Positions 1-60,200 of a stretch of 64,000 bases of DNA are shown piece after piece. The notes below the pieces were generated by a model that was not told the DNA's origin, searched no databases, and worked only from the letters and a program-made list of their open reading frames with translations. The stretch is from the NCBI RefSeq assembly GCF_963921235.1, contig NC_086097.1, forward strand, positions 155,994,001-156,058,000, written 5' to 3'. The position numbers were made by a program, and so were the translations under genes. The stretch is from Mobula hypostoma. Lineage: Eukaryota. Position 1 is the first letter of the stretch. Each line of letters starts with the position of its first letter.

Positions 1-530
1 TGTTTCCTGCAGTTGCCTGTTATCTCTCTGCAGATTTGCTCTTCCAATTCTCGTTGACTATTGGGTGGTCTGTAATACAATCCCACTAATGTGGCCATAC
101 CTTTCCTGTTTCTCAGCTCCACCCATAAGGACTCAGTAGACAAGCCCTCTAATCTGTCCTGCCTGAGCACTGCTGTACTATTTTCTCTAACAAGCAATGC
201 TACTCCCCCATCTTTCATTCCTCTGCCTCGATCACATCTGAAACATCGGAACCCTGGGATATTAAGCTGCCAGTCCTGCCCCTCCTGTAGCCAAGTTTCA
301 CTAATTGCTATAACGTCATAATTCCACGTGTCAATCCACGCCCTCAACTCATCCGCCTTCCCCGCAATACTCCTAGCATTGAAATATATACACCTCAGAA
401 GATTTTTACCACCATTCACAACCTTTCTATTAGCGGATTTGCTTGAACTTTTAACATCATTTATTTTCACCTCAGCCACACTGTCAGCTCTGGCACTCTT
501 GTCCCCATCCTCCTGCAAATCTAGTTTAAA
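1..530 (-). CDS. CR1 ORF2 N-terminus (APE endonuclease), -1 frame relative to ORF1, no AUG before the catalytic motifs; truncated by window edge
   Basis: Manual translation FKLDLQEDGDKS...LRCIYFNARSI...DVIAISETW...GLYYRPP, with no stop down to base 1. Confidence 0.85.
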
Positions 531-1456
531 GCCTCCTCAATAGCACTAACAAACCTCTCTGAAAGGATATTGGTCCCCCTGTAGTTCAAGTGTAACCCGT
601 CTCTCTTGTACAGGTCCCACCTACCCCAGAAGAGGTCCCAATGATCCTGAAATCTGAAACCCTGCCCCCTACACCTGTTCCTCAGCCACTTGTTCATCCT
701 CCAGAGCATCCTATCCCTACCCTCACTGGCACGTAGCACAGGTAGCAATCCTGAGATTACCACCCTTGAGGTCCTGCTTTTCAACTTCCTACCAAGCTCT
801 CTATACTCACTTTCCAGGACCTCCTCACTCTTTCTTGCTATGTCATTGGTACCGATGTGCACCATGACATCTGGCTGATCACCCTCCCACTTCAGAATGT
901 CATGCAAGTGATCAAAGACATCCTCGACCCTGGCACCCGGGAGACAACAAACCATCCTGGATTCTCTGTCACGACCACAGAACCTCCTATCTGCACCTCT
1001 AACTATCGAGTCCTCTATCACTACCGCTCTCCTCTTTCTACCCCCTCCCTTCTGCACTGCAGAGCCAGACTCAGTGCCAGAGATCCAGCTACTGCAGTTA
1101 GTCCCAGGTAAGTCATCCCCCACAACAGTATCCAATGCAGTATACTTGTTGTTGAGGGGAATGGCCACAGGGGAACCCTGCTCTGCCTGCCCTTTCCTCT
1201 TCCCTCGCCTGACAGTGACCCAATTTCCTGTCCTCTGCTCCTTTGGCGTAACTACCTCCCTGTAGCTACGACCTATAATCTCCTCATTCTCCCGAATGAT
1301 CCGCAGGTCATCCAGCTCCTGCTCCAGTTCCCTAACGCGGTTTGTCAGGAGCTGCAGCTGGATGCACTTCTTGCAGGTGTCGTTGTCAGGGACACCGGAG
1401 GGCTCCCTGACTTCCCACGTCCTGCAAGAGGAGCATTCCAACATCCTGCCTGACAT
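521..1456 (-). CDS. CR1 ORF1p: CxxC...CxxC zinc finger, coiled coil/leucine zipper, SGNH/GDSL esterase-like domain
   Basis: CSSC...CKKC, LQLLTNRVRELEQELDDL, and esterase blocks EDS (GDS-like), PGA, GTND, DGLH. Likely start is MSGRML at 1456 (track ORF starts at 1483). Confidence 0.88.
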   Translation of the reverse strand: MSGRMLECSSCRTWEVREPSGVPDNDTCKKCIQLQLLTNRVRELEQELDDLRIIRENEEIIGRSYREVVTPKEQRTGNWVTVRRGKRKGQAEQGSPVAIPLNNKYTALDTVVGDDLPGTNCSSWISGTESGSAVQKGGGRKRRAVVIEDSIVRGADRRFCGRDRESRMVCCLPGARVEDVFDHLHDILKWEGDQPDVMVHIGTNDIARKSEEVLESEYRELGRKLKSRTSRVVISGLLPVLRASEGRDRMLWRMNKWLRNRCRGQGFRFQDHWDLFWGRWDLYKRDGLHLNYRGTNILSERFVSAIEEALN

Positions 1457-9607: not shown

Positions 9608-12600
9608 TAGGACATGGGGAGGAGGGGTAACAAGGTCTGGCAAAGTGAGTTCAAGGAGTTAGGTGCTAAGTTAAAGGATAGGGCCTCCAGGGTTGTGATA
9701 TCAGGATTACTACCTGTGCTACATACTAGTGAGGCCAGAATTAGGAAGGTCTTACTATTTAACACATGACTAAGGAGATGGTCTTCAGGTTTTTTGAATC
9801 ATTGGGCTCTCTTCCAGGGAAGGTGAAACCTGTACAGAAGAGATGGTTTGCATTTAAACTGGAGGGGGACTAATATCCTAGCAGGAACGTTGCTTGTGCT
9901 ACACAGTGGGGAGGGGTTAAACAAGAGCTGCAGGGGGATGGCAACCAAAGTGTCAGAACAGACAGTGGAGTGGTTGTGAAGAAAGATGTTGAAACCTCAG
10001 GCAAAGTCAGATGTCAAAATGTTGAGCATGGTGGGACTAATATTCTGAGCTGTGCAAGTAGTACTGTAAGAAAGGCAAATGAATTTAGGGCATGGGTCAG
10101 CACATGGAATTATGATATTGTAGCCATTAGGGAGACAGAAAGAGTAGGACTGACAGCTCAAGGATCTGGGGTTCGTTGTTTTAGACATGGTAGAGTGGGA
10201 GAGAATAAAAAAAGTGGGGGGGGGTGGCATACTGATCAAGGAAAATGTCATGGCAGTTCTCAGTCAAGACAGGTTGGAGAGTTCATCTAGTAAAGCGTTA
10301 TGAGTAAAAATGAGGAATAAGAAACATATGACATTATTAATGGGATTATATTACAGACCACTCAACAGTCCATGGGATTTAGAGGAACACATTTGCAGAG
10401 AGATTGCTGACTGTTTCAAGAAACATAAGTTTGTGATTGTCGGTAATTTTAACTTTCCACATATTAACTGGGAAATGTGGAAAAGGGTTGGATGGGAATG
10501 AGTTTGTCAATTATGTTCAGGAAAGTTTCCTTAATCAGTACATAGAAGTCCTAACTAGAGAGAGCACGATACTAGATTTTCTATTAAGGAATGAGACAGG
10601 GCAGATGACAAAAGTTTGTGTTGTGGAACACTTTGCATGTAGTGATCATAATGCAAATAGTTTCAAAGTAAGTATGGAAAAAGGTAGGTCTGGTCTGCGG
10701 GTTGAGATTCTAAATTGGAGACAGGCCAATTTGATGGTATCAAAAAGGATCTGGCAGGTGTGGATTGGGACAGATTGTTTTCTGCCAAAGTCATATATGG
10801 TAAGTGGGAGGCATTCAAAAGTGAAAATCTCAGAGTACAGCGTTTGTATGTTCCAGTCAGAATAAAAGGGAAGGATGACAGGTTTAGGGAGCCTTGATTT
10901 TCGAGGATATTGAGGCCTTAGTTAAGAAAAAAAAGGAGATGCAGGTATAGGGAGGTAGGAATAAATGAGGTACTTTTGAATGAAGGAAAGGTGAAAGAGA
11001 ATCCTAAGGGCTTCTATAGATATATTAGGAGCAAAAGGATAGCAAGGGACAAAATTCATCCTTCGGAAGTTCATAGTGGTAAGCTATGCATGGAGCCGAA
11101 AGAGATGGGGAGACCTTAAATGGATTTTTTTCCATTTGTATTTACTTGGGAGATGGACACAAAGGCTATATAAATGAGGCAAATCAGCAGCCAGGTCATG
11201 CACCCTATACAGGTTACAGAGGAGGAGGTGTTTGCTGTCTTGAGACAAATTAAGGAGGATCTTGCTTTGTGGATCCTGAATTGGCTTGCTCACAGAAGAC
11301 AAAGGGTGGCTGCGGATGGTTTGTATTCTGCATGGAGGTCAGTGACCAGTGGTGTTCTGCAGAGATCTTTTTAAGGACCCCTCCTCTTTGTGATTTTTAT
11401 AAATGACCTGGATGAGGAAGTAAAAGGGTGGGTTAGTAAGTTTGCTGATGACACAAAAGTTAGGGGAGTTGTGGATAGTCTGGAGGGTGGTCGGAGGTTA
11501 CAGCAGGACATCGATAGGATGCAGAACTGGACTGAGAAGAGCCAAATGAAGTTCAACCCAGGTAAGTGTGAAGTAGTTCAAATTTGAAGACAATATAATA
11601 TTAATGATAAGACTCTTGGCGGTGTGGAGGATCAGAGAAATCTTGGGGTCTGTGTGTATAGGACACTCAAAGCTTCTACTCAAGTTCGCAGTGTTGTTAA
11701 GAAGGCGTATGGTGTGTTGGCCTTCATCAGCCATGGGATTGAGTTCAAGAGCTGTGAGGTAATATTACAGCTAATATAAGACCTTATTTAGACCCCACTT
11801 GGAGTACTGTGTTCATTTCTGGTCACCTCATTACAGGAAGGATGTGGATACTATAGAGAGAGTGTAGAGGAAATTAACAAGGATATTGCCTGGATAAGAA
11901 AGCATGCCCAGTGAACTTGGCCTTTTCTCCTTGGAGCAATGGCGGATGAGAAGTGACCTGACAGAGGTGTTTAAGATGATGAGAGGCATTGATTGTGTGG
12001 ATAGCCAGAGGCTTTTTCTCAGGGTGAAGTGGCTAACATGAGGGGGCATAGTTTTAGGGTGCTTGGAAGTAGGTACAAGGGGGATTTCAGAGGTTAATTT
12101 TTCACACAGGGAGTGGTAGGTGCATGGAATGCACTGTCAGTGAAGGTGATAGAAGTGGATACAATAGGGCCTTTTAAGAGACTCTTAGACAGGTAAAATA
12201 GACGGCTATGCAGTAGGGAAATATTAGGCAGTTTCTAGAGTAGGTTACATGGTTGGCACAACATTGTGGACTTAAGGACTTATAATGTGCTTTAGATTTC
12301 TATATTTCTATGTAAATCCCCAGGGCCTGACAAGGTGTTCCCTCAGACTCTGTGGGAGGATGGTGCAGAAATTACAGAGGCCCTTGTAGAGATATTTAAA
12401 GTATTCTTAGCAAGAGGCGAGGTGCTGGAGGATTAGGGGATAGTTGATGTTATTCCATTTCTTTTAAGAAAAGCTCTAAGAATGTCAGGAAATTATAGGT
12501 CTGTGATTCTGACATCAATAATGGGGAAGTTATTGGAAGATACTTATAGGGACAGGATATATAAGTATTTGGGTAGACAGGAACTGATTAGGGATAGTCA

Positions 12601-29351: not shown

Positions 29352-30849
29352 AAGAGATGCTTTACCACCCCTCCCATTCTCTGCCTCTGACCGCCTCCAG
29401 ACCTTTTGTGGTAGAGGCGGACACATCTGCCATGGATGACGGGGTCATCCTTTTCCAATGAGGATGGGATGGGAAGACATACACTTGAGCCTTCTTCTCA
29501 CGCAAGTTCAACTCTACACAGCACCATTATAGAACTGCAGACTTGCCATTAAACATGCCTTGGAGGAATGGAGACATTGGCCAATGGGGAAACAGTGAGT
29601 CTTTCCTGTCGTGGGCTGATTAACAGAACCTCTCATTCATATAGCAGACCCACTAACTCAACCAATATCAGGCTTGCTGGCCCTCTTTTCCAAGGAATTG
29701 TACTTCACCTCCTACTGATCTGGTTCCAAGAACACTATAGGGGAAACCCTGTTATGATAGTTTGACCCAGCTGAAACTGAGTTTGACCTTTGGCCCATCA
29801 TTCCATCCTCTTAGGTCCACGCCCTGATCATCTGGGACCTTGAGAATCAGATCCAGCAGGCCCTACAACATAAACTTTCTCCAGCCAACACTCATGAAAC
29901 CCATATGTTCATGCCAGCATCTGTACACTCTTAAACTCTAGAGTGGGCCCACTCCTCATCCCTCTCCAGCTATCCAGGTGTACAATGGACTCTGGATTTT
30001 CTGCAACACCAGTTCTGGTGGCCCGCCATGAATGCAGATGTGTGTCAACACATCACTGCTTGCCTCAATGTGCCCAGTCCAATTCTTCCAACCAGTGGCC
30101 TTCTGGGCTCCTGTGACCCTACTGATCCCTCAACGACCATGGTCCCACATCACCATGGATTTCGTCATAGATATGTCACCTTCTGATGGGGCTATGGTGA
30201 TCATCACAGTACTGGACTGTTCTCCAAGGTGGTCCTCTTCATTGCCATCCCCAAAATTCTGTCAGCTGCTGAGATGGAGGACCTGGTTCTCCAGCAGGTA
30301 ATTTGCTTCTAGTGTTTCTTCAGGACATTGCTTTGGACCAGGGTTCACAACTTGCTCCTGTTTCTGGCAAGCCTTCTGTTTCCTCCTCCACTACTCAGTG
30401 AGTTTGTCCTCTGGGCATCATGCGCAGGCCAATCAGCAAGTGGAGAAGTTTCTGCAATGCTTTGTTGCCTCTAACCTTTCCACAGGGAAGAAGTATCTGC
30501 TCTGGGCCAAACTGTCTGACAATTTACATACTTCCTCTGCCACAGATATGCCACCCTTTGGAGAGCTTCATGGCTACCTACCCCCTTTTGTACCCCACAG
30601 AGGAGCCATTTGGGGAGGTCCTGTCTACCAGGATCCTGGTTTGAAATAAATGCTCTTGTGCTCATCAAAAGCGTGATCCACAGCAGATGACCAGGTTATC
30701 CATGAGGTAGGTGACTTGGTGTGGGAGGTGTGAGGAGCTACCATTTGGCTGTAGTTTCCAGTAAATGGCAGTAGAAATTGCAGAAGCCCAAAATGCACTG
30801 TAGCTGTATGAGGGTATTCAACAGTGGAACACACTTACTAAGTTTATAG

Positions 30850-33363
30850 GTCCCCTGGTAGCAGCAGAGATACAGTTAGCAGATTGGGAGGCAGATTTTG
30901 GAAAGGTCAAAAATAACAGGGTTGTTATCATGGGTGACTTTAACTTCCCTAATATTGATTGGCACCTGATTAGTTCCAAGGGTTTAGATGGGGCAGAATT
31001 TGTTAAGTGTGTCCAGGATGGATTCCTGTCACAGTATGTGGACAGGCCGACCAGGGGTTATGCCATACTAGATCTAGTACTAGGTAATGAACCGGGTCAG
31101 GTCACAGATCTCTCAGTGGGTGAGCATCTGGGGGACAGTGACCACTGCTCCCTGGCCTTTATAATTATCATGGAAACGGATAGAATCAAAGAGGACAGGA
31201 AAATTTTTAATTGGGGAAAGGCAAATTATGAGGCTATAAGGCTAGAACTTGCGGGTGTGAATTGGGATGATGTTTTTGCAGGGAAATGTACTATGGACAT
31301 GTGGTCGATGTTTAGAGATCTCTTGCGGGATGTAAGGGATAAATTTGTCCCGGTGAGGAAGATAAAGAATGGTAGGGTGAAGGAACCATGGGTGACAAGT
31401 GAGGTGGAAAATTTAGTCAGGAGGAAGAAGGCAGCACACATGAGGTTTAGGAAGCAAGGATCAGATGGGTCTATTGAGGAATATAGGGAAGCAAGAAAGG
31501 AGCTTAAGAAGGGGCTGAGAAGAGCAGGAAGGGGGCATGAGAAGGCCTTGGTGAGTAGGGTAAAGGAAAACCCCAAGGCATTCTTCAATTATGTAAAGAA
31601 AAAAGGATGACAGGAGTGAAGGTAGGACCAATTAGAGATAAAGGTGGGAAAATGTACCTGGAGGCTGTGGAAGTGAGCGAGGTCCTCAATGAATACTTCT
31701 CTTCGGTATTCACCAATGAGAGGGAACTTGATGATGGTGAGGATAATATGAGTGAGGTTGATGTTCTGGAGCATGCTGATATTAAGGGAGAGGAGGTGTT
31801 GGAGTTGTTAAAATACATTAGGACAGATAAGTCCCTGGGGCCTGACAGAATATTCCCCAGGCTGCTCCACGAGGCGAGAGAAGAGATTGCTGAGCCTCTG
31901 GCTAGGATCTTTATGTCCTCGTTGTCCACGGGAATGGTACCGGATGATTGGAGGGAGGCGAATGTTGTTCCCTTGTTCAAAAAAGGTAGTAGGGATAGTC
32001 CGGGTAATTATAGACCAGTGAGCCTTACGTCTGTGGTGGGAAAGCTGTTGGAAAAGATTCTTAGAGATAGGATCTATAGGCATTTAGAGAATCATGGTCT
32101 GATCAGGGACAGTCAGCATGGTTTTGTGAAGGGCAGATCGTGTCTAACAAGCCTGATAGAGTTCTTTGAGGAGGTGACCAGGCATATAGATGAAGGTAGT
32201 GCAGTGGGTGTGATCTATATGGATTTTAGTAAGGCATTTGACAAGGTTCCACACGGTAGGCTTATTCAGAAAGTTAGAAGGCATGGGATCCAGGGAAGTT
32301 TGGCCAGGTGGATTCAGAATTGGCTTGCCTGCAGAAGGCAGAGGATGGTGGTGGAGGGAGTACATTCAGATTGGAGGATTGTGACTAGTGGTGTCCCACA
32401 AGGATCTGTTCTGTGACCTCTACTTTTCATGATTTTTATTAACGACCTGGATGTGGGGGTAGAAGGGTGGGTTGGCAAGTTTGCAGATGACACAAAGGTT
32501 GGTGGTGTTGTAGATAGTGTAGAGGATTGTCAAAGATTGCAAAGAGACGTTGATAGAATGCAGAAGTGGGATGAGAAGTGGCAGATGGAGTTCAACCCGG
32601 AGAAGTGTGAGGTGGTACACTTTGGAAGGACAAACCCCAAGGCAGAGTACAAAGTAAATGGCAGGATACTTGGTAGTGTGGAGGAGCAGAGGGATCTCGG
32701 GGTACATGTCCACAGATCCCTGAAAGTTGCCTCACAGGTGGATAGGGTAGTTAAGAAAGCTTATGGGGTGTTAGCTTTCATAAGTCGAGGGATAGAGTTT
32801 AAGAGTCACGATGTAATGGTGCAGCTCTATAAAACTCTGGTTAGGCCACACTTGGAGTATTGTGTACAGTTCTGGTTGCCTCACTATAGGAAGGATGTGG
32901 AAGCATTGGAAAGGGTACAGAGGAGATTTACCAGGATGCTGCCTGGTTTAGAAAGTATGCATTATGATCAGAGATTAAGGGAGCTAGGGCTTTACTCTTT
33001 GGAGAGAAGGAGGATGAGAGAAGACATGATAGAGGTGTACAAGATAATATGAGGAATAGATAGAGTGGATAGCCAGCACCTCTTCCCCAGGGTACCACTG
33101 CTCAAGACAAGAGGACATGGCTTTAAGGTAAGGGGTGGAGAGTTCAAGGGGGATTTTGGAGGAAGGTTTTTTACTCAGAGAGTGGTTGGTGTGTGGAATA
33201 CACTGCCTGAGTCAGTGGTGGAGGCAGATACACTAGTGAAGTTTAAGAGACTACTAGACAGGTATATGGAGGAATCTAAGGTGGGGGCTTATATGGGAGG
33301 CAGGGTTTGAGGGTCGGCACAACATTGTGGGCCAAAGGGCCTGTACTGTGCTGTACTATTCTA
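30850..33363 (+). mobile_element. Young 5'-truncated CR1 (APE C-half, RT, 3' UTR); ORF2 pseudogene
   Basis: ORFs 30930-31610, 31607-32416, 32429-33052 and 33065-33310 tile ORF2; frameshifts at about 30907 and 31600; stops at 32414 and 33050; tatag duplicated at 30845-30849 and 33364-33368. Confidence 0.95.
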
Positions 33364-35469: not shown

Positions 35470-37590
35470 CATAGAAACATAGAAATCTGCAGCAGATTAC
35501 AAGCCCTTCAGCCCACAATGCTGTGCCAACCATATAGCCAACTCTAGAAACTGCTTAGAATTTCCCTACAGCACAACCCCCTATTTTTTCCAAAACTCCA
35601 TGTACCTATCCAAGAGTCTCTTAAAATACCCTGTTGTATCCACATCTACCACCATCACTGGCAGTGCATTCCATACACCCACCACTCTCTGTGTGGAAAA
35701 ACTTAACTCTAACATCCCCCCTTGTACCTACTTCCAAGCACCTTAAAACAATGCTGCCTAGTGGTAGCCATTTCAGCCTTGGGAAAAGGCCTACGGCTAT
35801 CCACACGTCAATGCCTCTCATCATCTTGCACCTCTATCATATCACTTCTCATCCTCTGTCGCTCCAAGGAGAGAAAGCCAAGTTCACTCAAGCTATTCTC
35901 ATTAGGCATGCTCTCCAATATCCTTGTTAATCTCCTCTGCACTCTCTCTGTAATATCCATATCCTTCCTGTAGTGAGGTGACCAGAACTGAGCCCAGTAC
36001 TCCAAGTGGGGTCTAACTAAGGTCCTGTCTAGCTGTAATATTACCTAATGACTCTTGAGTTCAATCACATGGTTAATGAAGGCCAACACACAATACGCTT
36101 TCTTAACAACACTGTCAACCTGCGCTGCAGCTTTGAGTGTCCTATGGACATGGACCCCAAGATCTCACTGATCCTCCGCACGGCCAAGGATCTTACCATT
36201 AATATTATATTCTGCCTTCAAATTTGACCTACTGAAATAAGCCACTTCACACTTATTTGGGTTGAACTCCATCTGCCATTTCTCAGCCCAGTTCTGCATC
36301 CCATCAATGTAGTGCTGTAATCTCTGTTAACCCTCCAGACTATCCACAGCACTCTGACCTTTGTGTCATCAGCAGACTTACTAACCCACCTTCTACTTCC
36401 TCATTCAAGTCACTTATAAAAATCACAAAGAGGAGGGGTCCCAGAACAGATCCATATGCAAAGATACTAAATAGCAACCATATGGAACTCTGCAGAATAC
36501 CAAGCATCAACAACCACACTTTGCCTTCTGTGGGCAAGCCAATTCTGGATTCACAAAGCAAGGTCTCTTGGATTCCATGCCTCATTACTTTCTGATGAGC
36601 CTTGAATGGGGAACCTTATCAAATGCCTTACTGAAATCCATATATACTACATCCACTGCTCTACCTTCATCAATGTGTTTTGTTACATCCTCAAACAATT
36701 CAATCAGGTTTGTAAGACATGACCTGCCTTTGAAAAAGCCATGGTGATTATTCCTAATCAGTTTACGTCTCTCCAAATGCTCATAAAAACTACCTCTCAG
36801 GATCTTCTCCACCAAATTGCCTACCACTGAAGTAAGTCTTGCTGGTCTATAATTTCCCGCATTATCTCTACTCCCTTTCTTGAACGGGGGACAACATTTG
36901 CTGCCTTCCAATCTTCTTCCTATTGATGATGCAAAGATCATCGCGGGAGGTTCAGCAATCTCCTCCCTCTCTTCCCAGAGTAGCCTGGAGTACATTTCAT
37001 CCGAACACAGCGAATTATCTAACTTAATACCTTTCAAAAGCTCCTGCACATCTTCTTTCTTAATGTCTGCACATTCAAGCATTTCAGTCCTCTGTAAGTC
37101 ATCCCCACAATTGCCAAGGTCCTTTTCACTGGTGAATACTGAAACAAAGTATTCATTAAGTGCTTCTGCTACTTCCTCCAGCTCCATGCACGTGTTTCCA
37201 TTATCACTCCTGATTGGTCCTATTCTCACCCGGCTCACCCTCTTGCTCCTCACATACTTGTAGAATGCCTTGGGGTTTTTCTTAATCCTGCTCAACAAGA
37301 ACTTCTCATGGTCCCTTCTAGCTCTCCTAATTCCATTCCTGACACACTTGTAATTTTCTAGAGGTCTGTCATTGCCTAGTTTTTTGAACCTTTCATATGC
37401 TTTTCTTTTCTTCTTAACTAGATTTTTCTACATCTTTTGTACACCATGGTTCTTTTACCCTACCATCCTTTCCCTGCCTCAGTGGAACGTACTTACGCAG
37501 AACACCTTGCAAATGTTCCTTGAACATTTGCCACATTTCTGCCATGTGTTTTCCTGAGAACATCTGCTCCCAATTTATATTCCCAAGTTT
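35470..37590 (-). mobile_element. 5'-truncated CR1 (ORF2 RT region and 3' tail), decayed
   Basis: 237-aa ORF 36585-37298 (NPKAFYKY..GNYRP..DFSKAFDKVPH); catagaaacatagaa tail. Confidence 0.92.
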
Positions 37591-51918: not shown

Positions 51919-54900
51919 TCAACTAGTAGGTAATTCCTTAAGACTCCCAAAATATGATAAGAAAGGTCCCCATTTTGAATAGAACTTTTTCACAGACCCC
52001 CTCAAAGTGAATTTAATCTTTTCTAATTTCAGAAAAAACATTACATCTTCTAACCAAGCAGCAGCAGTTGGGGGAGTGGCAGATTTCCAAACCAGCAAAA
52101 TTCTCCTACGGGCCAATAGCGATGTAAATGCAATGATATCCGACTGGCTTGCATTTAAACCCAAATCATCATCTGCCACACCAAATACAGCTATAAGTGG
52201 GCAAGGTCTCAGTGTCACCCCCAAAACCTCACTGATAATTTTAAAAACCAGTGCCCAATAGTCATCAAGCCGAGGGCATGACCAAAATGCATGTATTAAA
52301 CCAGCCGGAGAGAAGGAACACCTGTCACAGCCAGCGTCTGTCCCAGGGTATATGTCTGCCAGTCTGGCTTTACTTAAATGTACCCTGTGTAAAACTTTGA
52401 ATTGTATGAGCCCCAGTCTAGCACATGATGATGAGAAATGAACCCTATTCAATACTTTTGCCCAATATTCCTCCGCAAGGTCCATACCGAGGTCGTCCTC
52501 CCACCTACTCTTAGTTTTGTTTAGATCTTGAACTCCCAAAGACATCAGCTGAGAGTATAGTTCAGAAATCAGCCCCTTATTGTTAAAGCTAAGAGTGAAT
52601 TTTTCCCATAACATAGCAGGTGGTAGAACAGGAAAAGAGGGAAATTTTTCCTTGACAAAGTGGCGAATCTGCAGGTATTTAAAAAAATGATTATGCGGAA
52701 GGCCATACTTACCGCGCAGGTTATCAAAACTATCAAATATGTTATCAGTATACAAATCCTTAATGCGCATAAGACCATTCAAACCCCATTGTCTAAAAGC
52801 TGAATCGAATGTGGAGGGAGGAAATAAATGGTTTTTATGAATGGGGCCCAAAACTGAAGCTGATAGGAACTTATAGTGGCAGCGAAATTGATTAAGAATT
52901 TTGAGGATGGAGAGCACGACCGGGTTAGATGTGAATTGAGAGGATTTCAATGGTAAGGAAGAATACACCAAAGCTGGGAGAGACGAGGAGTGGCAAGATC
53001 GTGACTCAAGCAGGCACCAGATTATATCTGGCCGGTGAAGCCAAAATAATACTTTTTGAATGTTCGATGCCCAGTAATAATGAATAAAGCTGGGAAGACC
53101 CATTCCACCTATGTCACGACCTCTTTGAAGAATGCGCTTATTAACCCTTGGGACCTTATTTTCCCAAATAAAGGAGGTTATAGCTTGATCAACTGATTTA
53201 AAAAATAACTTAGATAAGAAAACTGGCAAACACTGAAACAAATAGAGAAATCTAGGAAGTATAGTCATTTTCACTGACTGAATTCTCCCAGCTATAGTAA
53301 GGGGTAAACTGCGCCATCTCTCGAAATCAGCCTTCATTTGGCTAACCTGAGGCCTGTAGTTAGCTTCAAACAGAGATGTAAAAGAGCGAGTAATATGTAT
53401 TCCTAGGTATACAAGACCATCTTGAGATAAAGGAAAGGGCAAGGATTCCTGTCGGATCTGTAGGGCCAAGTTATTAATGGGAAAGCATTTGCTTTTTTGA
53501 AAGTTCAGTTTATAGCCAGAGAAGGCTCCAAATTGACCTAATAATGACACAATAGCAGGACTACTACCTATAGGGTCGCTAACATAAAGTAAGAGGTCAT
53601 CAGCATATAGGGAAACACGGTGTTCCATGTCCCCTCTTATAACACCTTGAAATAATGTAGTTGACTTAATTGCAATAGAAAGAGGCTCAATTGCAATTGC
53701 AAAAAGAAGAGGGGACAGTGGGCAGCCTTGGCGAGTGCCACATTTTAATGGGAAATAGCCAGATCGAAAATAATTTGTCTGTATACACGCTGAAGGCGAG
53801 TGGTATAATAGCTTAACCCAAGCTATAAATATTCTGCCAAATCCAAATTTCTCCAAAACACTAAATAAATATACCCATTCCACTCTATCAAATGCCTTCT
53901 CCACGTCCAAGGCGATAACAACCTCTGGACTTGGAGAATCACTCAGTGAATAAACCACATCAGCCAGTCGACGGATATTAAAAAAAGAATAGCGATTTTT
54001 AATAAAACCTGTTTGATCATCTGAAATTATCTTGGGAAGGGGATGTTCTAAACGACATGCAAGCACTTTAGCCAAAATTTTCACATCTACATTCAAAAGT
54101 GAAATGGGGCGATATGATCCACATTGAGTCGGGTCCTTGTCCTTTTTAAGAAGTAGTGAAATAGCTGCCTGTGAAAGAGAAGGGGGTAAGGAGCCATTCT
54201 CCAAAGATTCCTGAAACACTTCTAGAAGGACCGGTGTGAGCTTATCCTTAAATTTCTTATAAAATTCTATTGGATAACCATCAGGACCTGGGGACTTACC
54301 ACTCTGCATAGCCATAATGGCATTATTAATCTCTTCCTGCCCAAGAGCCCGACCTAGGTTCTCCACTTCCTCTGGTTCAAGAGTTGGTATTTCCAAATTA
54401 TCTAAAAAACGTTCCATATTTGTTTTATCTGAGGGGAACTCTGAGGCATACAGAGAGGAATAAAAAGTTGCAAAGATGTTATTAATCTCTTTTGGATTGC
54501 TTGTCAAGTTCTGGTGCATGTCTCTTACCTGAGGAATAAGTCGTGATGCAGCTTGACGTTTCAACTGATGAGCCATAAGCCGGCTCGCCTTGTCACCATA
54601 TTCATAATAGAGGCCACGTGTCTTAAGAATTAATTGTTCTGATAGGTTTGTAGATAGAAGATTAAACTTCGCTTGCAAATCAACCCGACTTTTATATAAT
54701 TCCGCAGTGGGTGCCTCAGAATATTTTCTATCCAGGTCCCAAATAGATTTCAATAACACTTGCATTTCCTTCCTACGCTCTTTATTGGCATGTGAAGTAT
54801 AAGATATTATTTGACCCCTCAAGCAAGCTTTTAAAGTTTCCCAAAGTAAAGAGTACGATACCGACTCAGTTTTGTTAGTCTCGAAGAATGTGTCAATGTT

Positions 54901-55722
54901 AGCCGATATATAACTACAAAATTTCTCATTAGAAAGCAAAAGGGGGTTAAGTCTCCACAGAGGCCGTTCTCTAACGTTTAAAGGAAAACATAGGTCCAGT
55001 TTCACGGGCGAGTGATCAGATATAACTATAACAGTGTATTCAATTTGTCTAATCATAGGTATCAAGGAATTATCTATAAAGAAATAGTCTAGCCTGGAAT
55101 AGGAGTGGTGAACATGAGAGAAGAAAGAGAATTGCCTAACTGATGGATTCAAAAATCTCCAAGGATCCATATAACCATTTTGTTGCATAAACATCGAGAA
55201 GGCCTTTGCCATACCAGAAAATGTTCCCCTAGGGCAAGACCTATCAAGCAGTGGGTCAATAGCACAGTTCAAATCTCCGGAAAAGATTAGCTTATGTGTA
55301 TTCAGGTTAGGTATTAATGACAAAACCCTATTTGCAAATTGGACATCGTCCCAATTAGGAGCATAAACATTTACCAAAATAACAGGTATCTGAAAGAGAG
55401 AGCCAGAGACTATAATAAAGCGACCATTAGGGTCACTGATTACATCAGATGGTGTGAACTGCATTCTTTTGGTGATTAATATTGCCACCCCCCTGGACCT
55501 ACTATTAAATCTGGAATGAAAAACCTGACTAATCCATGCTTTACGAAGTCTATTATGGTCCTCCACTCTTAAATGTGTCTCTTGTAGAAATAGTATATCA
55601 GCTTTTAATTGTTTCAGATGTGAGAAAACTTTAGCTCTTTTAACCGGACCATTAAGCTCCTTTACATTCCAAGAAATAAACCTCACAGGGTGACCTCCAT
55701 CAGCTGCACTCATGTTAACCAT
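51919..55722 (-). CDS. L1 ORF2p: APE endonuclease, reverse transcriptase, CCHC zinc knuckle
   Basis: SWNV, LQETH, VYAPN, GDLN, SRLDY, SDH; RQGCPLSP, YADD; CDRC..H..C. Likely start is MVNMS at 55722 (track ORF begins at 55854). Confidence 0.95.
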   Translation of the reverse strand: MVNMSAADGGHPVRFISWNVKELNGPVKRAKVFSHLKQLKADILFLQETHLRVEDHNRLRKAWISQVFHSRFNSRSRGVAILITKRMQFTPSDVISDPNGRFIIVSGSLFQIPVILVNVYAPNWDDVQFANRVLSLIPNLNTHKLIFSGDLNCAIDPLLDRSCPRGTFSGMAKAFSMFMQQNGYMDPWRFLNPSVRQFSFFSHVHHSYSRLDYFFIDNSLIPMIRQIEYTVIVISDHSPVKLDLCFPLNVRERPLWRLNPLLLSNEKFCSYISANIDTFFETNKTESVSYSLLWETLKACLRGQIISYTSHANKERRKEMQVLLKSIWDLDRKYSEAPTAELYKSRVDLQAKFNLLSTNLSEQLILKTRGLYYEYGDKASRLMAHQLKRQAASRLIPQVRDMHQNLTSNPKEINNIFATFYSSLYASEFPSDKTNMERFLDNLEIPTLEPEEVENLGRALGQEEINNAIMAMQSGKSPGPDGYPIEFYKKFKDKLTPVLLEVFQESLENGSLPPSLSQAAISLLLKKDKDPTQCGSYRPISLLNVDVKILAKVLACRLEHPLPKIISDDQTGFIKNRYSFFNIRRLADVVYSLSDSPSPEVVIALDVEKAFDRVEWVYLFSVLEKFGFGRIFIAWVKLLYHSPSACIQTNYFRSGYFPLKCGTRQGCPLSPLLFAIAIEPLSIAIKSTTLFQGVIRGDMEHRVSLYADDLLLYVSDPIGSSPAIVSLLGQFGAFSGYKLNFQKSKCFPINNLALQIRQESLPFPLSQDGLVYLGIHITRSFTSLFEANYRPQVSQMKADFERWRSLPLTIAGRIQSVKMTILPRFLYLFQCLPVFLSKLFFKSVDQAITSFIWENKVPRVNKRILQRGRDIGGMGLPSFIHYYWASNIQKVLFWLHRPDIIWCLLESRSCHSSSLPALVYSSLPLKSSQFTSNPVVLSILKILNQFRCHYKFLSASVLGPIHKNHLFPPSTFDSAFRQWGLNGLMRIKDLYTDNIFDSFDNLRGKYGLPHNHFFKYLQIRHFVKEKFPSFPVLPPAMLWEKFTLSFNNKGLISELYSQLMSLGVQDLNKTKSRWEDDLGMDLAEEYWAKVLNRVHFSSSCARLGLIQFKVLHRVHLSKARLADIYPGTDAGCDRCSFSPAGLIHAFWSCPRLDDYWALVFKIISEVLGVTLRPCPLIAVFGVADDDLGLNASQSDIIAFTSLLARRRILLVWKSATPPTAAAWLEDVMFFLKLEKIKFTLRGSVKKFYSKWGPFLSYFGSLKELPTS

Positions 55723-56323
55723 ATCAAAAGACACACAGGGCCTACAATCCAAAACAGTGCGAGGGTATAAGTTGCACACAATAACGCACAATAAAAAGAA
55801 AGTCTGATCAATCCGTAACACACAAAAGAATAAACTGCCATGGTAATCCCCCAAAACACTCCCCCCACCCCTTTACACAAACAAAAAAACCCAATTAACC
55901 CCCGAAGCCTAGATCTACCTCCCCAATTGAGGATGATCGCAGGCAGTACCCAACAAAAAACTTGCAAGGCGTCCCCCATACAACCCAACTTTCAATCTAA
56001 TCTAGGGTGGCTCCCCTCCCTAAAATTTATCCTATCACTTATACTACCTTTAATATAACATATAGGCTAAAGATAACACAGGTCAAGCTAAGCATTAAAA
56101 ACAAAAAAAAACACACTGGGCAACACCCGAGATATAAATCCCAAATATTTACATTTTGCTGGTTGAAAGTTTTTGTTAATCAGTTTCGGCAGCATAGCAG
56201 TTCGACCCGATCGCGTTCCACAAATTAAACTGGAAAAAATGAACAAAGAAGTGGATTGTGAAAATTAACAGTTTGCTTCGGCATGAGGCCCCTTCAATGC
56301 TGCACGAATAACCTAAAAAAAAG

Positions 56324-57232
56324 TCATTGCTCTTCTCGTTCTTGTTCTCCCCAGCGTGAATGGTAAAACTCTTTGGCCGCCTCTGGTGTATGGAAATAAT
56401 GCTTTTCACCTTCATGCATGACCCGGAGCTGGGCAGGATACAAGAGGCCGAACCTGACCCCTTTCCCGTAAAGCAGGGATTTCACCTCCTTGAAAGCTGC
56501 TCGTTTTTTACCCAGCTCCGCACTAAAATCTTCATAAAAAAGCACGCGGTGTCCGCAGAAATACAGCTCCTGCTTCCGTCTGTTGATGATGCGTTGCTTA
56601 TCTTGAAAGGAGTGAAAGCAAACCAGGAACATTCTTGGTCTCGTTTGCTTGGCTCCAGAGGCACCGGATGGTTTACGTCCGACTCGGTGAGCACGCGAAA
56701 GTACGAGAGGACTTGGGAAAAAATCTGCCCCCAGCACTTCGTCAAAAAACTCGGTCATAAATTTAACAGGGTCCGAACCTTCCAAATTTTCAGGAATGCC
56801 GACCACTCTCAAATTAGATCTCCGCGACCGATTTTCGAGGTCATCAAGCTTTCCCTTCAGAACTGCGTTTTCGCTCTGCAACGCTGCAATGGCGGCTTCG
56901 GCGCTCACCAGTCGGTCATTGTAATCATTCAGGCCGTCTTCAACCTCACGAATGTGTTCGTCGTGTGTCTCGTAAGCAGACATAATTTGTTCCATGGTAG
57001 CAGTCACTGGTGATAATGCATCTTCAAGTTCTCTTTTTAGGGCAGAATGCACCGCTTGCGTCATGTCAGTAATAAGCACTAAACGAAGCCTCTCCAAGTC
57101 ATCGGGTAGGGCAGGTCCGGGACCAGCTCCAGCAGCGTGCAACGGCACCATTACTGTAACATCAGTCTGCTTGCTCGAGGCTTCGCTATCTTTTTCCCCA
57201 GCTTTACTTCGAAGGTACATTCTACTTGCCAT
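56324..57232 (-). CDS. L1 ORF1p (coiled coil, RRM, CTD; Transposase_22-like)
   Basis: KLDDLENRSRRSNLRVVGIPE, RAHR, RPR, FYEDFS, LYPAQL. Confidence 0.93.
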   Translation of the reverse strand: MASRMYLRSKAGEKDSEASSKQTDVTVMVPLHAAGAGPGPALPDDLERLRLVLITDMTQAVHSALKRELEDALSPVTATMEQIMSAYETHDEHIREVEDGLNDYNDRLVSAEAAIAALQSENAVLKGKLDDLENRSRRSNLRVVGIPENLEGSDPVKFMTEFFDEVLGADFFPSPLVLSRAHRVGRKPSGASGAKQTRPRMFLVCFHSFQDKQRIINRRKQELYFCGHRVLFYEDFSAELGKKRAAFKEVKSLLYGKGVRFGLLYPAQLRVMHEGEKHYFHTPEAAKEFYHSRWGEQEREEQ

Positions 57233-60200
57233 TTCAATGTCCAGCTATGTCCCGCGTTGTTCACAATGGTAAGTATCCAGTTATCTCGAGCATACGGTAA
57301 AGATAAATAGGTAGATTTTCAATAAAAATCGGGAGCCACACTCACACGCACCAACTCACTCCATACTCGACGCCGGAAGTCCTAATGTATTTTAACAACT
57401 CCAACACCTTCTCTCCCTTAATATCAACATGTTCCAGAACATCAACCTCACTCATATTGTCCTCACCATCATCAAGTTCCCTCTCATTGGTGAATACCGA
57501 AGAGAAGTATTCATTGAGGACCTCGCTCATTTCCAAAGCCTCCAGGCACATCTTCCCACCTTTATCTCTAATCTGTCCTACCTTCACTTCTGTCATCCTT
57601 TTTTTCTTCACGTAATTGAAGAATTCCTTGGGGTTTTCCTTTACCCTACTTGCCAAGGCCTTCTCAAGCCCCATTCTTGCTCTTCTCAGCCCCTTCTTAA
57701 GCGCCTTTCTTGCTTCCCTATATTCCTCAATAGACCCATCTGATCCTTGCTTCCTAAACTTCATGTATACTGCCTTCTTCCACCTGACTAGATTTTCCAC
57801 CTCACTTGTCACCCATGGTTCCTTCACCCTACCATTCTTTATCTTCCTCACCGGGACAAATTTATCCCTAACATCCTGCAAGAGATCTCTAAACATCGAC
57901 TACATGTCCATAGTACATTTCCCTGCCAAAACATCATCCCAATTCATGCCCGCAAGTTCTAGCCTTATAGCCTCATAATTTGCCCTTCCCCAATTAAAAA
58001 TGTTCCCGTCTTCTCTGATTCTATCCTTTTCCATGATAATGCTAAAGGCCAGGGAGCAGTGGTCACTGTCCCCCAGATGCTCACCCACTGAGAGATCTGT
58101 GACCTGACCCGATTCATTACCTAGTATTAGATCTAATATGGCATTCCCCCTAGTCAGCCTGTCCAAATACTGTGACAGGAATCTGTCCTGACACACTTAA
58201 CAAACTCTGCCCCATCTAAACCCCTGGAACTAATCAGGTGCCAATCAATATTAGGGAAGTTAAAGTCACCCATGATAACAACCCTGTTATTTTTGACCTT
58301 TCCAAAATCTGCCTCCCAATCTGCTCCTCTTTATCTCTGCTGCTACCAGGGGGCCTATAGAATACCCCCAGTAGAGTAACTGCTCCCTTCCTGTTCCTGA
58401 CTTCCATCCATACTGACTCAAAAGAGGATCCTGGTACATTACCTACCCTTTCTGTAGCCGTAATAGTATCCCTGGCCAGGAATGCCGCCCCTCCTCCCCT
58501 CCCCCTCCCATCCCTTTTAAAGCACTGAAATCCAGGAATATCGAGAACCCATTCCTGCCCTGGTGCCAGCCAAGTCTCTGTAATGGCCACTACATCATAA
58601 TTCCATGTATGTATCCAAGCTCTCAGTTCATCACCTTTGTTCCTGATGCTTCTTGCATTGAGGTACACACATTTCAGCCCTTCTACCTTACTGCCTTTAC
58701 ACCGTTTATTGCTCCGGGTCCCATCCCCCTTGCAAATTAGTTTAAACCCTCCTGAACTATGCTAGCAAACGTTCCTGCAAGGATATTGCTCCCCCTCAAG
58801 TTCAGGTGCAACCCATCCAATCTGTACAGGTCCCAACTTCCCCAGAAGAGATCCCAATGGTCCAAAAATCTAAAACCCTGTTCCCTGCACTAACTCCTCA
58901 GCCACGCATTCAACTGCCATCTCCTCCAATTCTTACCATCACTGTCACGTAGCAGTGGAAGCAATCCTGAGAACGCCACCCTTGAGGTCCTGTTCTTCAG
59001 CCTTCTGCCTCGTTCCCGTACTTCCTGCCTATGTCATTGGTACCAACATGTATCACGACTTCTGGTTGCTTTCCCTCTTGTACCAGGATGTCGTGCACCT
59101 GGTCAGAGACATCCCGGACCCTGGCACCCGGGAGGCAACAAACCATGCGGGTGTCCTTCTCACATCCACAAAATCTCCTGTCTGCTCCCCTGACTATAGA
59201 GTCTCCAATAACGACAGCTCTCCTCTTCTCCATCCCACCCTTCTGCACCACCGGGTCAGACTCAGTGCCGGAGGCCCTGCCACCATGGCTCACACCTGGT
59301 CGGTCGTCCCCGCCAACAGTATCCAGGACAGTAAACTTTTTATTCAGGGGGATGGCTACAGGGGTGCTCTGCACTACCTGTCTGCTCACCTTCACTTTCC
59401 CCCCTCTGACTGTCACCCAATGACCTGCTTCTGACAGCCTAGGTGTGACTACCTCCCTGAAGCTCTCATCTATGACTGCCTCATTCTCCCTTATGAGTCG
59501 AAGGTCAACCAGCTGCTGCTCCAGATTCCTTCCACGATCTTCCAGATCGCCCAGCCATAAGCACTTCTGGAAGATGTGACTCTGCGGGAGACGGGCGTTT
59601 CCCCAAGACTGCCACATCTCACATGAGAGGAACATCAACATCTCAGGAAACATTGTAAAGACTAACTGTGAGGAAGCTTGTCCTCCGCCTCTTCTCGTCG
59701 AAGCCTCTCGAGTCAAAGCCTCAAAGGTCCACTCCTTCACTAGCCCACTTACTCACTGGCCTCTATCAGGTCACCTCTCATTCTCTGACGCTCCAAGGAG
59801 AAAAGGTTCATTCAACCTATTCTCATAAGGCATGCTCCCCAATCCAGGCAACATCCTTGTAAGTGTCCTCTGCATCCTTTCTATCGTTTCCACGTCCTGC
59901 CTGTAGTGAGGCGACCAGAATTGAGCACAGTAATCCAAGTGGTGTCTGACCAGGGTCCTATATAGTAGCAACGTTACCTCTCGGCTCTTAAACTCAATCC
60001 CACAATTGATGAAAACCAATGCACCATATGCCTTCTTAACCATAGAGTCAACCTGCACAGCAGCTTTGAGTGTCCTATGGACTCGGACCCCAATATCGCT
60101 CTGATCCTCCACACTGCCAAGAGACTTACCATCAATGCTATATTCTGGAATCACATTTGACCTACCAAAGTGAACCACCTCACACATATCTGGGTTGAAC

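Follow-up and report, generated by a model that had tools for sequence, protein, structure and literature searches.

A conserved slippery heptamer at the end of CR1 ORF1 suggests programmed −1 frameshifting into ORF2

Introduction

How is the second open reading frame of a LINE translated when no AUG precedes its endonuclease domain? CR1 is the dominant LINE in many non-mammalian vertebrates, and the translation of AUG-less CR1 ORF2 appears so far to be without explanation. The question is posed at the very start of the window analyzed here, a stretch of 64,000 nucleotides from Mobula hypostoma (RefSeq assembly GCF_963921235.1, contig NC_086097.1, positions 155,994,001 to 156,058,000 of the forward strand), which opens in the interior of a CR1 LINE lying on the minus strand. 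An initial annotation of this DNA proposed that a −1 ribosomal frameshift fuses the two ORFs of the element. Here, we examine the junction in the window copy, in its relatives within the genome and in other lineages, and weigh frameshifting against other routes to ORF2.

The junction in the window copy

The ORF1 frame of the window copy spans 521-1498 on the minus strand; from its first ATG at 1456, the ORF (521..1456) runs to a C-terminus reading ...IEEALN*. A Cys-rich N-terminus, presumptively zinc-finger-like, and a stretch that looks coiled-coil-like, both labeled from sequence pattern, are followed by a domain matching the SGNH esterase family (PF13472, E 1.7e-10). The 3′ end of the frame reads GAG GCT TTA AAC TAG, such that TTTAAAC (530-524) abuts the stop codon (523-521). 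As the initial annotation had observed, this places U_UUA_AAC in exact X_XXY_YYZ register directly 5′ of the stop, which is TAG in this copy, TAA in other families and TGA in one published lizard consensus. A G-run at 504..513, a candidate stimulator, follows the heptamer after a fixed 10 nt spacer, and reads GGAGGATGGG in the window copy and GGGGG-NN-GGG in the families.

The −1 frame begins FKLDLQEDG... and stays open for 178 codons up to the window edge, matching the APE family PF03372 from residue 51; the earlier claim that it is open through the APE domain to the window edge is borne out. An AUG-less linker of 48 codons (387..530, minus strand) connects the slip codon with the first APE strand, and the APE domain itself (3..386) continues past the window edge. 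The first Met of the frame is codon 105, at position 218, downstream of YFN at codon 49 and SETW at codon 77, which we take to be catalytic APE motifs; here too the annotation read the sequence correctly. Stops close the frame upstream (537..548), although one that the annotation had singled out, a TGA three codons upstream of the slip site (539-537), is present in the window copy but is not a family trait, being TGG in 29/29 close copies. The family closes the same frame with a TAG six codons upstream of the slip site (548-546), so the private TGA leaves the argument unchanged.

The window copy is dead: beyond the window edge its ORF2 stops after 335 codons, and its G-run has a substitution. 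RT motifs following APE were recognized by eye in the 1039-aa ORF2 of a related copy, the window copy being broken earlier. The 3′ UTR is short and ends in TTTCTATG-type repeats, a microsatellite rather than poly(A). Homologs of the ORF1 occur in sharks, rays, chimaera, frog, reptiles and one bird, the nearest named ones being from rays, skates and sharks. Judged by these homologs and by a junction common to named CR1 consensuses, the element is an esterase-type CR1 LINE. Published vertebrate CR1 elements likewise have an esterase ORF1, an APE-RT ORF2, a short 3′ UTR and a microsatellite tail (PMC13343379, PMC4316615), and consensuses in the PMC13343379 supplement carry the same junction motif; the main texts of the two papers, in which neither "frameshift" nor "overlap" occurs, do not address how ORF2 is translated.

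Several other LINE copies lie in the window. A second, divergent CR1 family, with an ORF1 56-58% identical in protein, has the same heptamer followed by TAA at 58737..58746 (minus strand); this copy (58234-59752, minus) has a frameshift in ORF1 and a linker shortened in frame, to 27 codons versus 52. An older, decayed CR1 at 9611-10420 (plus) reads GGVKQELQGDG rather than GGFKLDLQGDG across the junction, the mutated heptamer of a dead copy. A near-intact LINE at 51919-57244 (minus), which we take to be L1-type from its ORF1 sequence, has a 306-codon ORF1 with coiled-coil matches, a spacer of ~450 nt and an unbroken APE-RT frame of 1317 codons. More decayed ORF2 fragments with APE or RT matches lie at 30804-33052 (plus) and 36585-37427 (minus). 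At another locus, L233, the CR1 is broken ~450 nt 3′ of the heptamer by unrelated sequence that resembles, by eye, the start of an LTR element.

Conservation of the heptamer

DNA and protein queries retrieved 225 loci from this genome, of which 195 could be anchored by the end of the esterase, with the last four residues left out of the anchor; 177 of the anchored copies belong to seven multi-copy CR1 families. TTTAAAC followed by TAR is found in 145/177, or by family in 33/35, 23/30, 23/30, 14/27, 19/20, 19/20 and 14/15 copies. That so many copies across seven families keep heptamer and stop shows that the site is not copy noise, and the copies that depart from it look like products of the decay of dead copies. 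In every family examined the heptamer adjoins the ORF1 stop, whether TAG or TAA, and the codon ahead of Leu is GCT, GGT, GAT or ACT. The chance rate can be gauged from the ORF1s of the window-copy family, in which a canonical heptamer falls in frame at 42 of 10,395 codon positions (0.4%). A teleost L2-type query retrieved nothing other than CR1 copies.

Beyond this genome, 45 loci were recovered by scanning metagenomes; 18 of these could be anchored and 16 reached the junction. The heptamer is intact in 12/16 and followed by TAR in 10/16, the deviants being four single decayed copies; several of these junctions match a swallow ORF1 best, and we refer to such junctions as bird-like. Seven family majorities and 12 single contigs (L121, L124, L133 and L152 being left out) form a comparison of 19 lineages, which are related and shark-heavy, such that the following counts are not independent. 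Agreement at the seven heptamer positions is 18, 19, 18, 19, 18, 15 and 16 of 19. The preceding codon is GCT, GGT, GAT, ACT, TCT or TGT, its third-position T recurring in 18/19 lineages. Nearby conserved codons vary freely, for instance an upstream Leu (CTG/TTG/CTT/CTC), an Asp (9:8) and an Ala (6:5:4), and in ORF2 codon usage TTA accounts for 18% of Leu codons and AAC for 32% of Asn codons. A protein constraint cannot fix TTA, AAC or the upstream third-position T; on these codon comparisons, the heptamer is under constraint at the nucleotide level. The expectation in the initial annotation that the motif should be kept at synonymous positions is therefore upheld, by the copy counts and by the lineage comparison alike.

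Published consensuses extend the range. In the PMC13343379 supplement, 18 of the 22 motif matches listed (23 in all) lie by context at an ORF1/ORF2 junction and four elsewhere, in a search that was keyed on the motif and so is blind to families lacking it. As we interpret the entries, the junction matches come from alligator, crocodile, bearded dragon (whose consensus has TGA as the ORF1 stop), frog, coelacanth, bowfin, chimaera, sharks, rays and eel-like fish.

The C-termini of ORF1 proteins provide a complementary view. In an alignment of 28 ORF1s sharing 25-46% identity with the first sequence, nine columns are invariant, L and N being two of them, although the sequences were picked as complete, with their ends known beforehand. 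An unselected set of 276 homologs includes 197 with a complete esterase end. Among these, DGLHL-type ORF1s have a terminal N in 113/142 cases and DGLHP-type in 2/55; the latter, mostly teleost L2-like, end two residues sooner without LN. The DGLHL-type endings comprise LN in 97, GN in 10, SN in 2, and KN, IN, FN and EN in one each. Because UUA, GGA and AAA encode L, G and K, the endings follow an XXY_AAC rule, with DNA available for the LN endings and the GN and KN endings known from protein only. U_UUA_AAC, G_GGA_AAC and A_AAA_AAC are listed among the most shifty heptamers (PMC5009743).

Two groups at the edges of this set deserve mention. Teleost L2-type esterase ORF1s (proteins P0095-P0138) end in TI, SI or TV instead of N, and such elements probably use another route to ORF2. 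Non-vertebrate-looking esterase ORF1s (P0182-P0269) end in GN, LN, KN, FN or SN, and the terminal N is invariant across 14 sequences of this group at 25-52% identity; scans of viral and prokaryote collections yielded no DNA of such invertebrate-like elements. Protein P0013, a shark-type CR1 ORF1 from a 4-kb contig, is filed at NCBI as a Pseudomonas aeruginosa SGNH hydrolase and is probably contamination by host DNA.

An open −1 frame with few start codons

The region between heptamer and first APE strand measures 48, 70, 66, 65, 108, 52 and 84 codons in the seven families, and most of these linkers cannot be aligned between families. Even so, in six families the median number of stops in linkers that remain in frame is 0 for the −1 frame and 4-11 for the two alternative frames. 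The slip frame contains the APE motif in 30/32, 13/22, 13/18, 2/7, 13/17, 18/19 and 10/13 copies per family, 2/7 being the value for the oldest, indel-riddled family, whose decay is too heavy for a frame test. In one copy the frame runs uninterrupted for 1039 codons, starting at the heptamer and reaching the ORF2 end. Upstream, the −1 frame is closed 1-5 codons 5′ of the heptamer in 6/7 families.

Start codons are scarce. Three families, that of the window copy included, lack any Met ahead of APE in 29/30, 13/14 and 10/10 open copies, and the remaining four have a Met within the linker. One family has UAAUG at the ORF1 stop in 23/23 copies, the AUG falling within six codons, and in 7/9 bird-like copies codon 4-6 of the −1 frame is an AUG (UAG-NN-AUG or similar). 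The other three families with a linker Met have it farther along the linker. An AUG overlapping or adjoining the ORF1 stop occurs in 0/33 copies of the window-copy family; near the stop it is absent or almost so in 5-6 of the seven families, and no near-cognate codon sits at a fixed position. An FK-encoding slip site in the −1 frame, with a stop at most five codons upstream and no AUG, implies either frameshifting or a non-AUG start.

A spliced start would be a further route. The ORF1 stop varies between TAG, TAA and TGA, which excludes a fixed 3′ splice site, and the junction has no pyrimidine tract. Assembled, mostly presumed-RNA contigs of many decayed copies contained no GT..AG joint at the junction among the 15 joints listed, with 166 more lying beyond that list. 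At the level of sequence, the refutation criteria named in the initial annotation speak in its favor, through the three AUG-less families and the variation of the stop; four families do have a linker Met.

Two further observations concern this region. Thirteen long matches that appeared to be natural in-frame ORF1-ORF2 fusions look like gene-model chimeras. When loci L238 and L239 are compared with L232, one family proves to have ~18 additional codons, in frame, separating the slip site from a second GDGN-like stretch; the stretch after this block is common to another family, and the block falls inside the first 50 codons 3′ of the heptamer. It looks, from sequence comparison, like the outcome of a recombination that preserved the frame and took place upstream of any AUG.

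The G-run and the search for a stimulator

The G-run begins 11 nt after the heptamer at a fixed position, and G occupies +10 to +13, counted after the first base of the stop, in 18/19 lineages. A folded structure in the G-rich 60 nt downstream, which the initial annotation had suggested looking for, did not materialize: no local hairpin or pseudoknot is conserved behind the heptamer, 17 of 18 z-scores against shuffles lying above −1.8 and one window reaching −2.9, as computed with a folding program that has no pseudoknot model. Only 1/16 loci contained a strict Watson-Crick complement to the core of the G-run. Recurrent upstream partners near −870 nt are probably proline codons, C-rich within a purine-rich strand, and were set aside, and a two-tier G-quadruplex appeared in the MFE fold of 3/6 families only, an inconsistent signal.

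Pairing with the 3′ tail of the element gave a mixed picture, in which pyrimidine-rich CR1 tails and a purine-rich strand inflate apparent pairing. Against bird-like tails taken from different loci, four bird-like junctions reached median pairing energies of −19.8 to −22 kcal/mol, beating all 8, 89, 120 and 72 ORF2-body windows, respectively; with shark-type tails the same junctions reached only −8 to −16 kcal/mol. Among six shark-type families with a tail, the family's own tail beat all 137 body windows in two, the window-copy family included, but not in the other four; when the tail windows were lengthened, 9-10 of 110 windows did at least as well as the tail of the window-copy family. With bird tails, shark-type junctions form pairings that are equally strong or stronger, and hence there is no reciprocal covariation between junction and tail. 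Pairing of the junction with the tail is only suggestive, a lead.

How, then, might the G-run act? By analogy with a known viral motif discussed below, action through a bound protein is a real possibility, though we would stop short of calling it probable. Pairing with the element's own 3′ tail, as the energies above hint, is a doubtful candidate; it is unlikely that the G-run is no stimulator at all, and a G-quadruplex-type contact seems more unlikely still.

Weighing the routes to ORF2

We consider it probable, on the grounds of the sequence pattern, that CR1 elements reach ORF2 through programmed −1 ribosomal frameshifting, the product being an ORF1-APE-RT fusion. The main competitor is termination-reinitiation, whereby ribosomes would terminate at the end of ORF1 and resume translation in the −1 frame, at an AUG or independently of one, to give free ORF2p, with the conserved motif and G-run serving as a reinitiation signal. 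The UAAUG family and the bird-like AUGs described above are in its favor, as are the established UAAUG coupling of the LINE SART1 (PMC2699510) and the AUG-independent initiation favored for mammalian LINE ORF2 (PMC5009743). What reinitiation leaves unexplained is the in-register X_XXY_YYZ heptamer, the upstream wobble T and the pattern of L, G or K before N; moreover, most families have no AUG nearby and no near-cognate codon at a fixed position, and the conserved CR1 G-run is located downstream of the stop, on the opposite side from known reinitiation signals. As the sole route we regard it as improbable. A compromise would have frameshifting as the ancestral route, with AUG-bearing lineages additionally making free ORF2p by reinitiation. 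Retention of the full heptamer and G-run in those lineages is consistent with such a history; the position of the AUG drifts, however (codon 4, 5, 6, 8 or none), alternating with TTG and TCG as expected of a coding linker. We judge this combination unlikely, while noting that it overlaps with the frameshifting explanation and does not exclude it.

The motif could instead be kept for some other cause, be it a C-terminal Leu-Asn, an RNA-binding signal or a splice signal, with ORF2 expressed from a spliced or sub-genomic RNA. The RNA data consist of assembled contigs of many decayed copies, which leaves splicing some room. A protein constraint is nonetheless unable to fix the codons in question, the active esterase construct of ZfL2-1 terminates at I302 (PMC3905857), and DGLHP-type ORF1s dispense with LN altogether; a splice signal is at odds with the varying stop and the lack of a pyrimidine tract. 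An explanation of this sort appears very improbable.

Under programmed frameshifting, most ribosomes would terminate at the end of ORF1, giving ORF1p. In a minority, the tRNA-Leu on UUA and the tRNA-Asn on AAC would slip back by one base onto UUU and AAA; these ribosomes would then generate a predicted junction peptide ...EALN-LDLQ or ...EAL-KLDLQ, and continue through the variable basic linker into APE and RT. The resulting ORF1-linker-APE-RT fusion of ~1,300 residues would amount to a few per cent of ORF1p, and slippage would set a fixed ratio of ORF1p to ORF2p, as for Gag and Gag-Pol. With no protease domain seen, the fusion would presumably stay uncut. A wider reading holds both that all esterase-type CR1 elements, from those of jawed vertebrates to the invertebrate-like G_GGA_AAC/A_AAA_AAC branch, make RT solely as a Gag-Pol-like fusion, and that the G-run, positioned at the mRNA entrance, is a new kind of stimulator, its reader being a protein or else the 3′ tail at a distance of 3 kb. 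We hold this reading as tentative at most, and doubt that it is true in full; were it true with the tail as reader, RT would be made only from RNAs with an intact end.

Relation to known systems

Viral −1 sites provide the closest parallel. Coronavirus U_UUA_AAC and retroviral G_GGA_AAC and A_AAA_AAC share with CR1 the heptamer class, the register and a location at the end of a structural ORF ahead of the polymerase ORF (PMC5009743, PMC3203594), and a published reporter plasmid has TTTAAACTAG as its slip site (PMC3203594). Unlike CR1, in which no such structure was found and a G-run follows a 10-nt spacer instead, viral sites have a local pseudoknot or hairpin 5-9 nt downstream; the absence of a recognizable protease domain also sets CR1 apart. 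Two viral precedents bear on the G-run. In PRRSV nsp2, the shift site is followed after 11 nt by an unstructured, protein-bound motif (PMC5009743), a spacing that the CR1 G-run shares, although the PRRSV motif is C-rich and the CR1 motif G-rich, the latter being a candidate for protein binding by spacing only. In BYDV, frameshifting involves pairing with a site 4 kb downstream (PMC5009743), comparable to a possible pairing with the CR1 tail, albeit one that lacks reciprocal covariation.

There is also precedent among LINEs. The Dictyostelium elements TRE5-A and TRE3-A need a −1 frameshift for ORF2, according to a review (PMC5911963), and are, like CR1, APE-type non-LTR elements; they are amoebal, belong to another clade and have a different ORF1. 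SART1, with its UAAUG coupling, and mammalian L1, with unconventional initiation, resemble CR1 in being bicistronic with low ORF2 output, but produce free ORF2p, and L1 has a spacer between its ORFs.

Programmed −1 frameshifting is itself well known; its placement in vertebrate CR1 LINEs is the proposal made here. The examined part of PMC5009743 does not mention CR1, and a full-text literature search found no proposal of frameshifting in CR1, the search having stopped short of the 1990s CR1 papers (Haas 1997, Kajikawa 1997), Kapitonov & Jurka 2003, the SART1, L1 and DRE primary papers and Repbase notes, where such a proposal may already stand.

The junction, as comparison of its sequences indicates, is a real and deeply conserved feature, from sharks to birds. 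If it works as proposed, it would contradict the view of animal LINE ORF2s as free proteins arising from reinitiation, and would place a lipid-binding esterase and a reverse transcriptase on one chain. It would also represent a natural frameshift site that operates without a local hairpin, conserved from sharks to birds, and the start of CR1 ORF2 would have to be redefined in annotations and retrotransposition assays.
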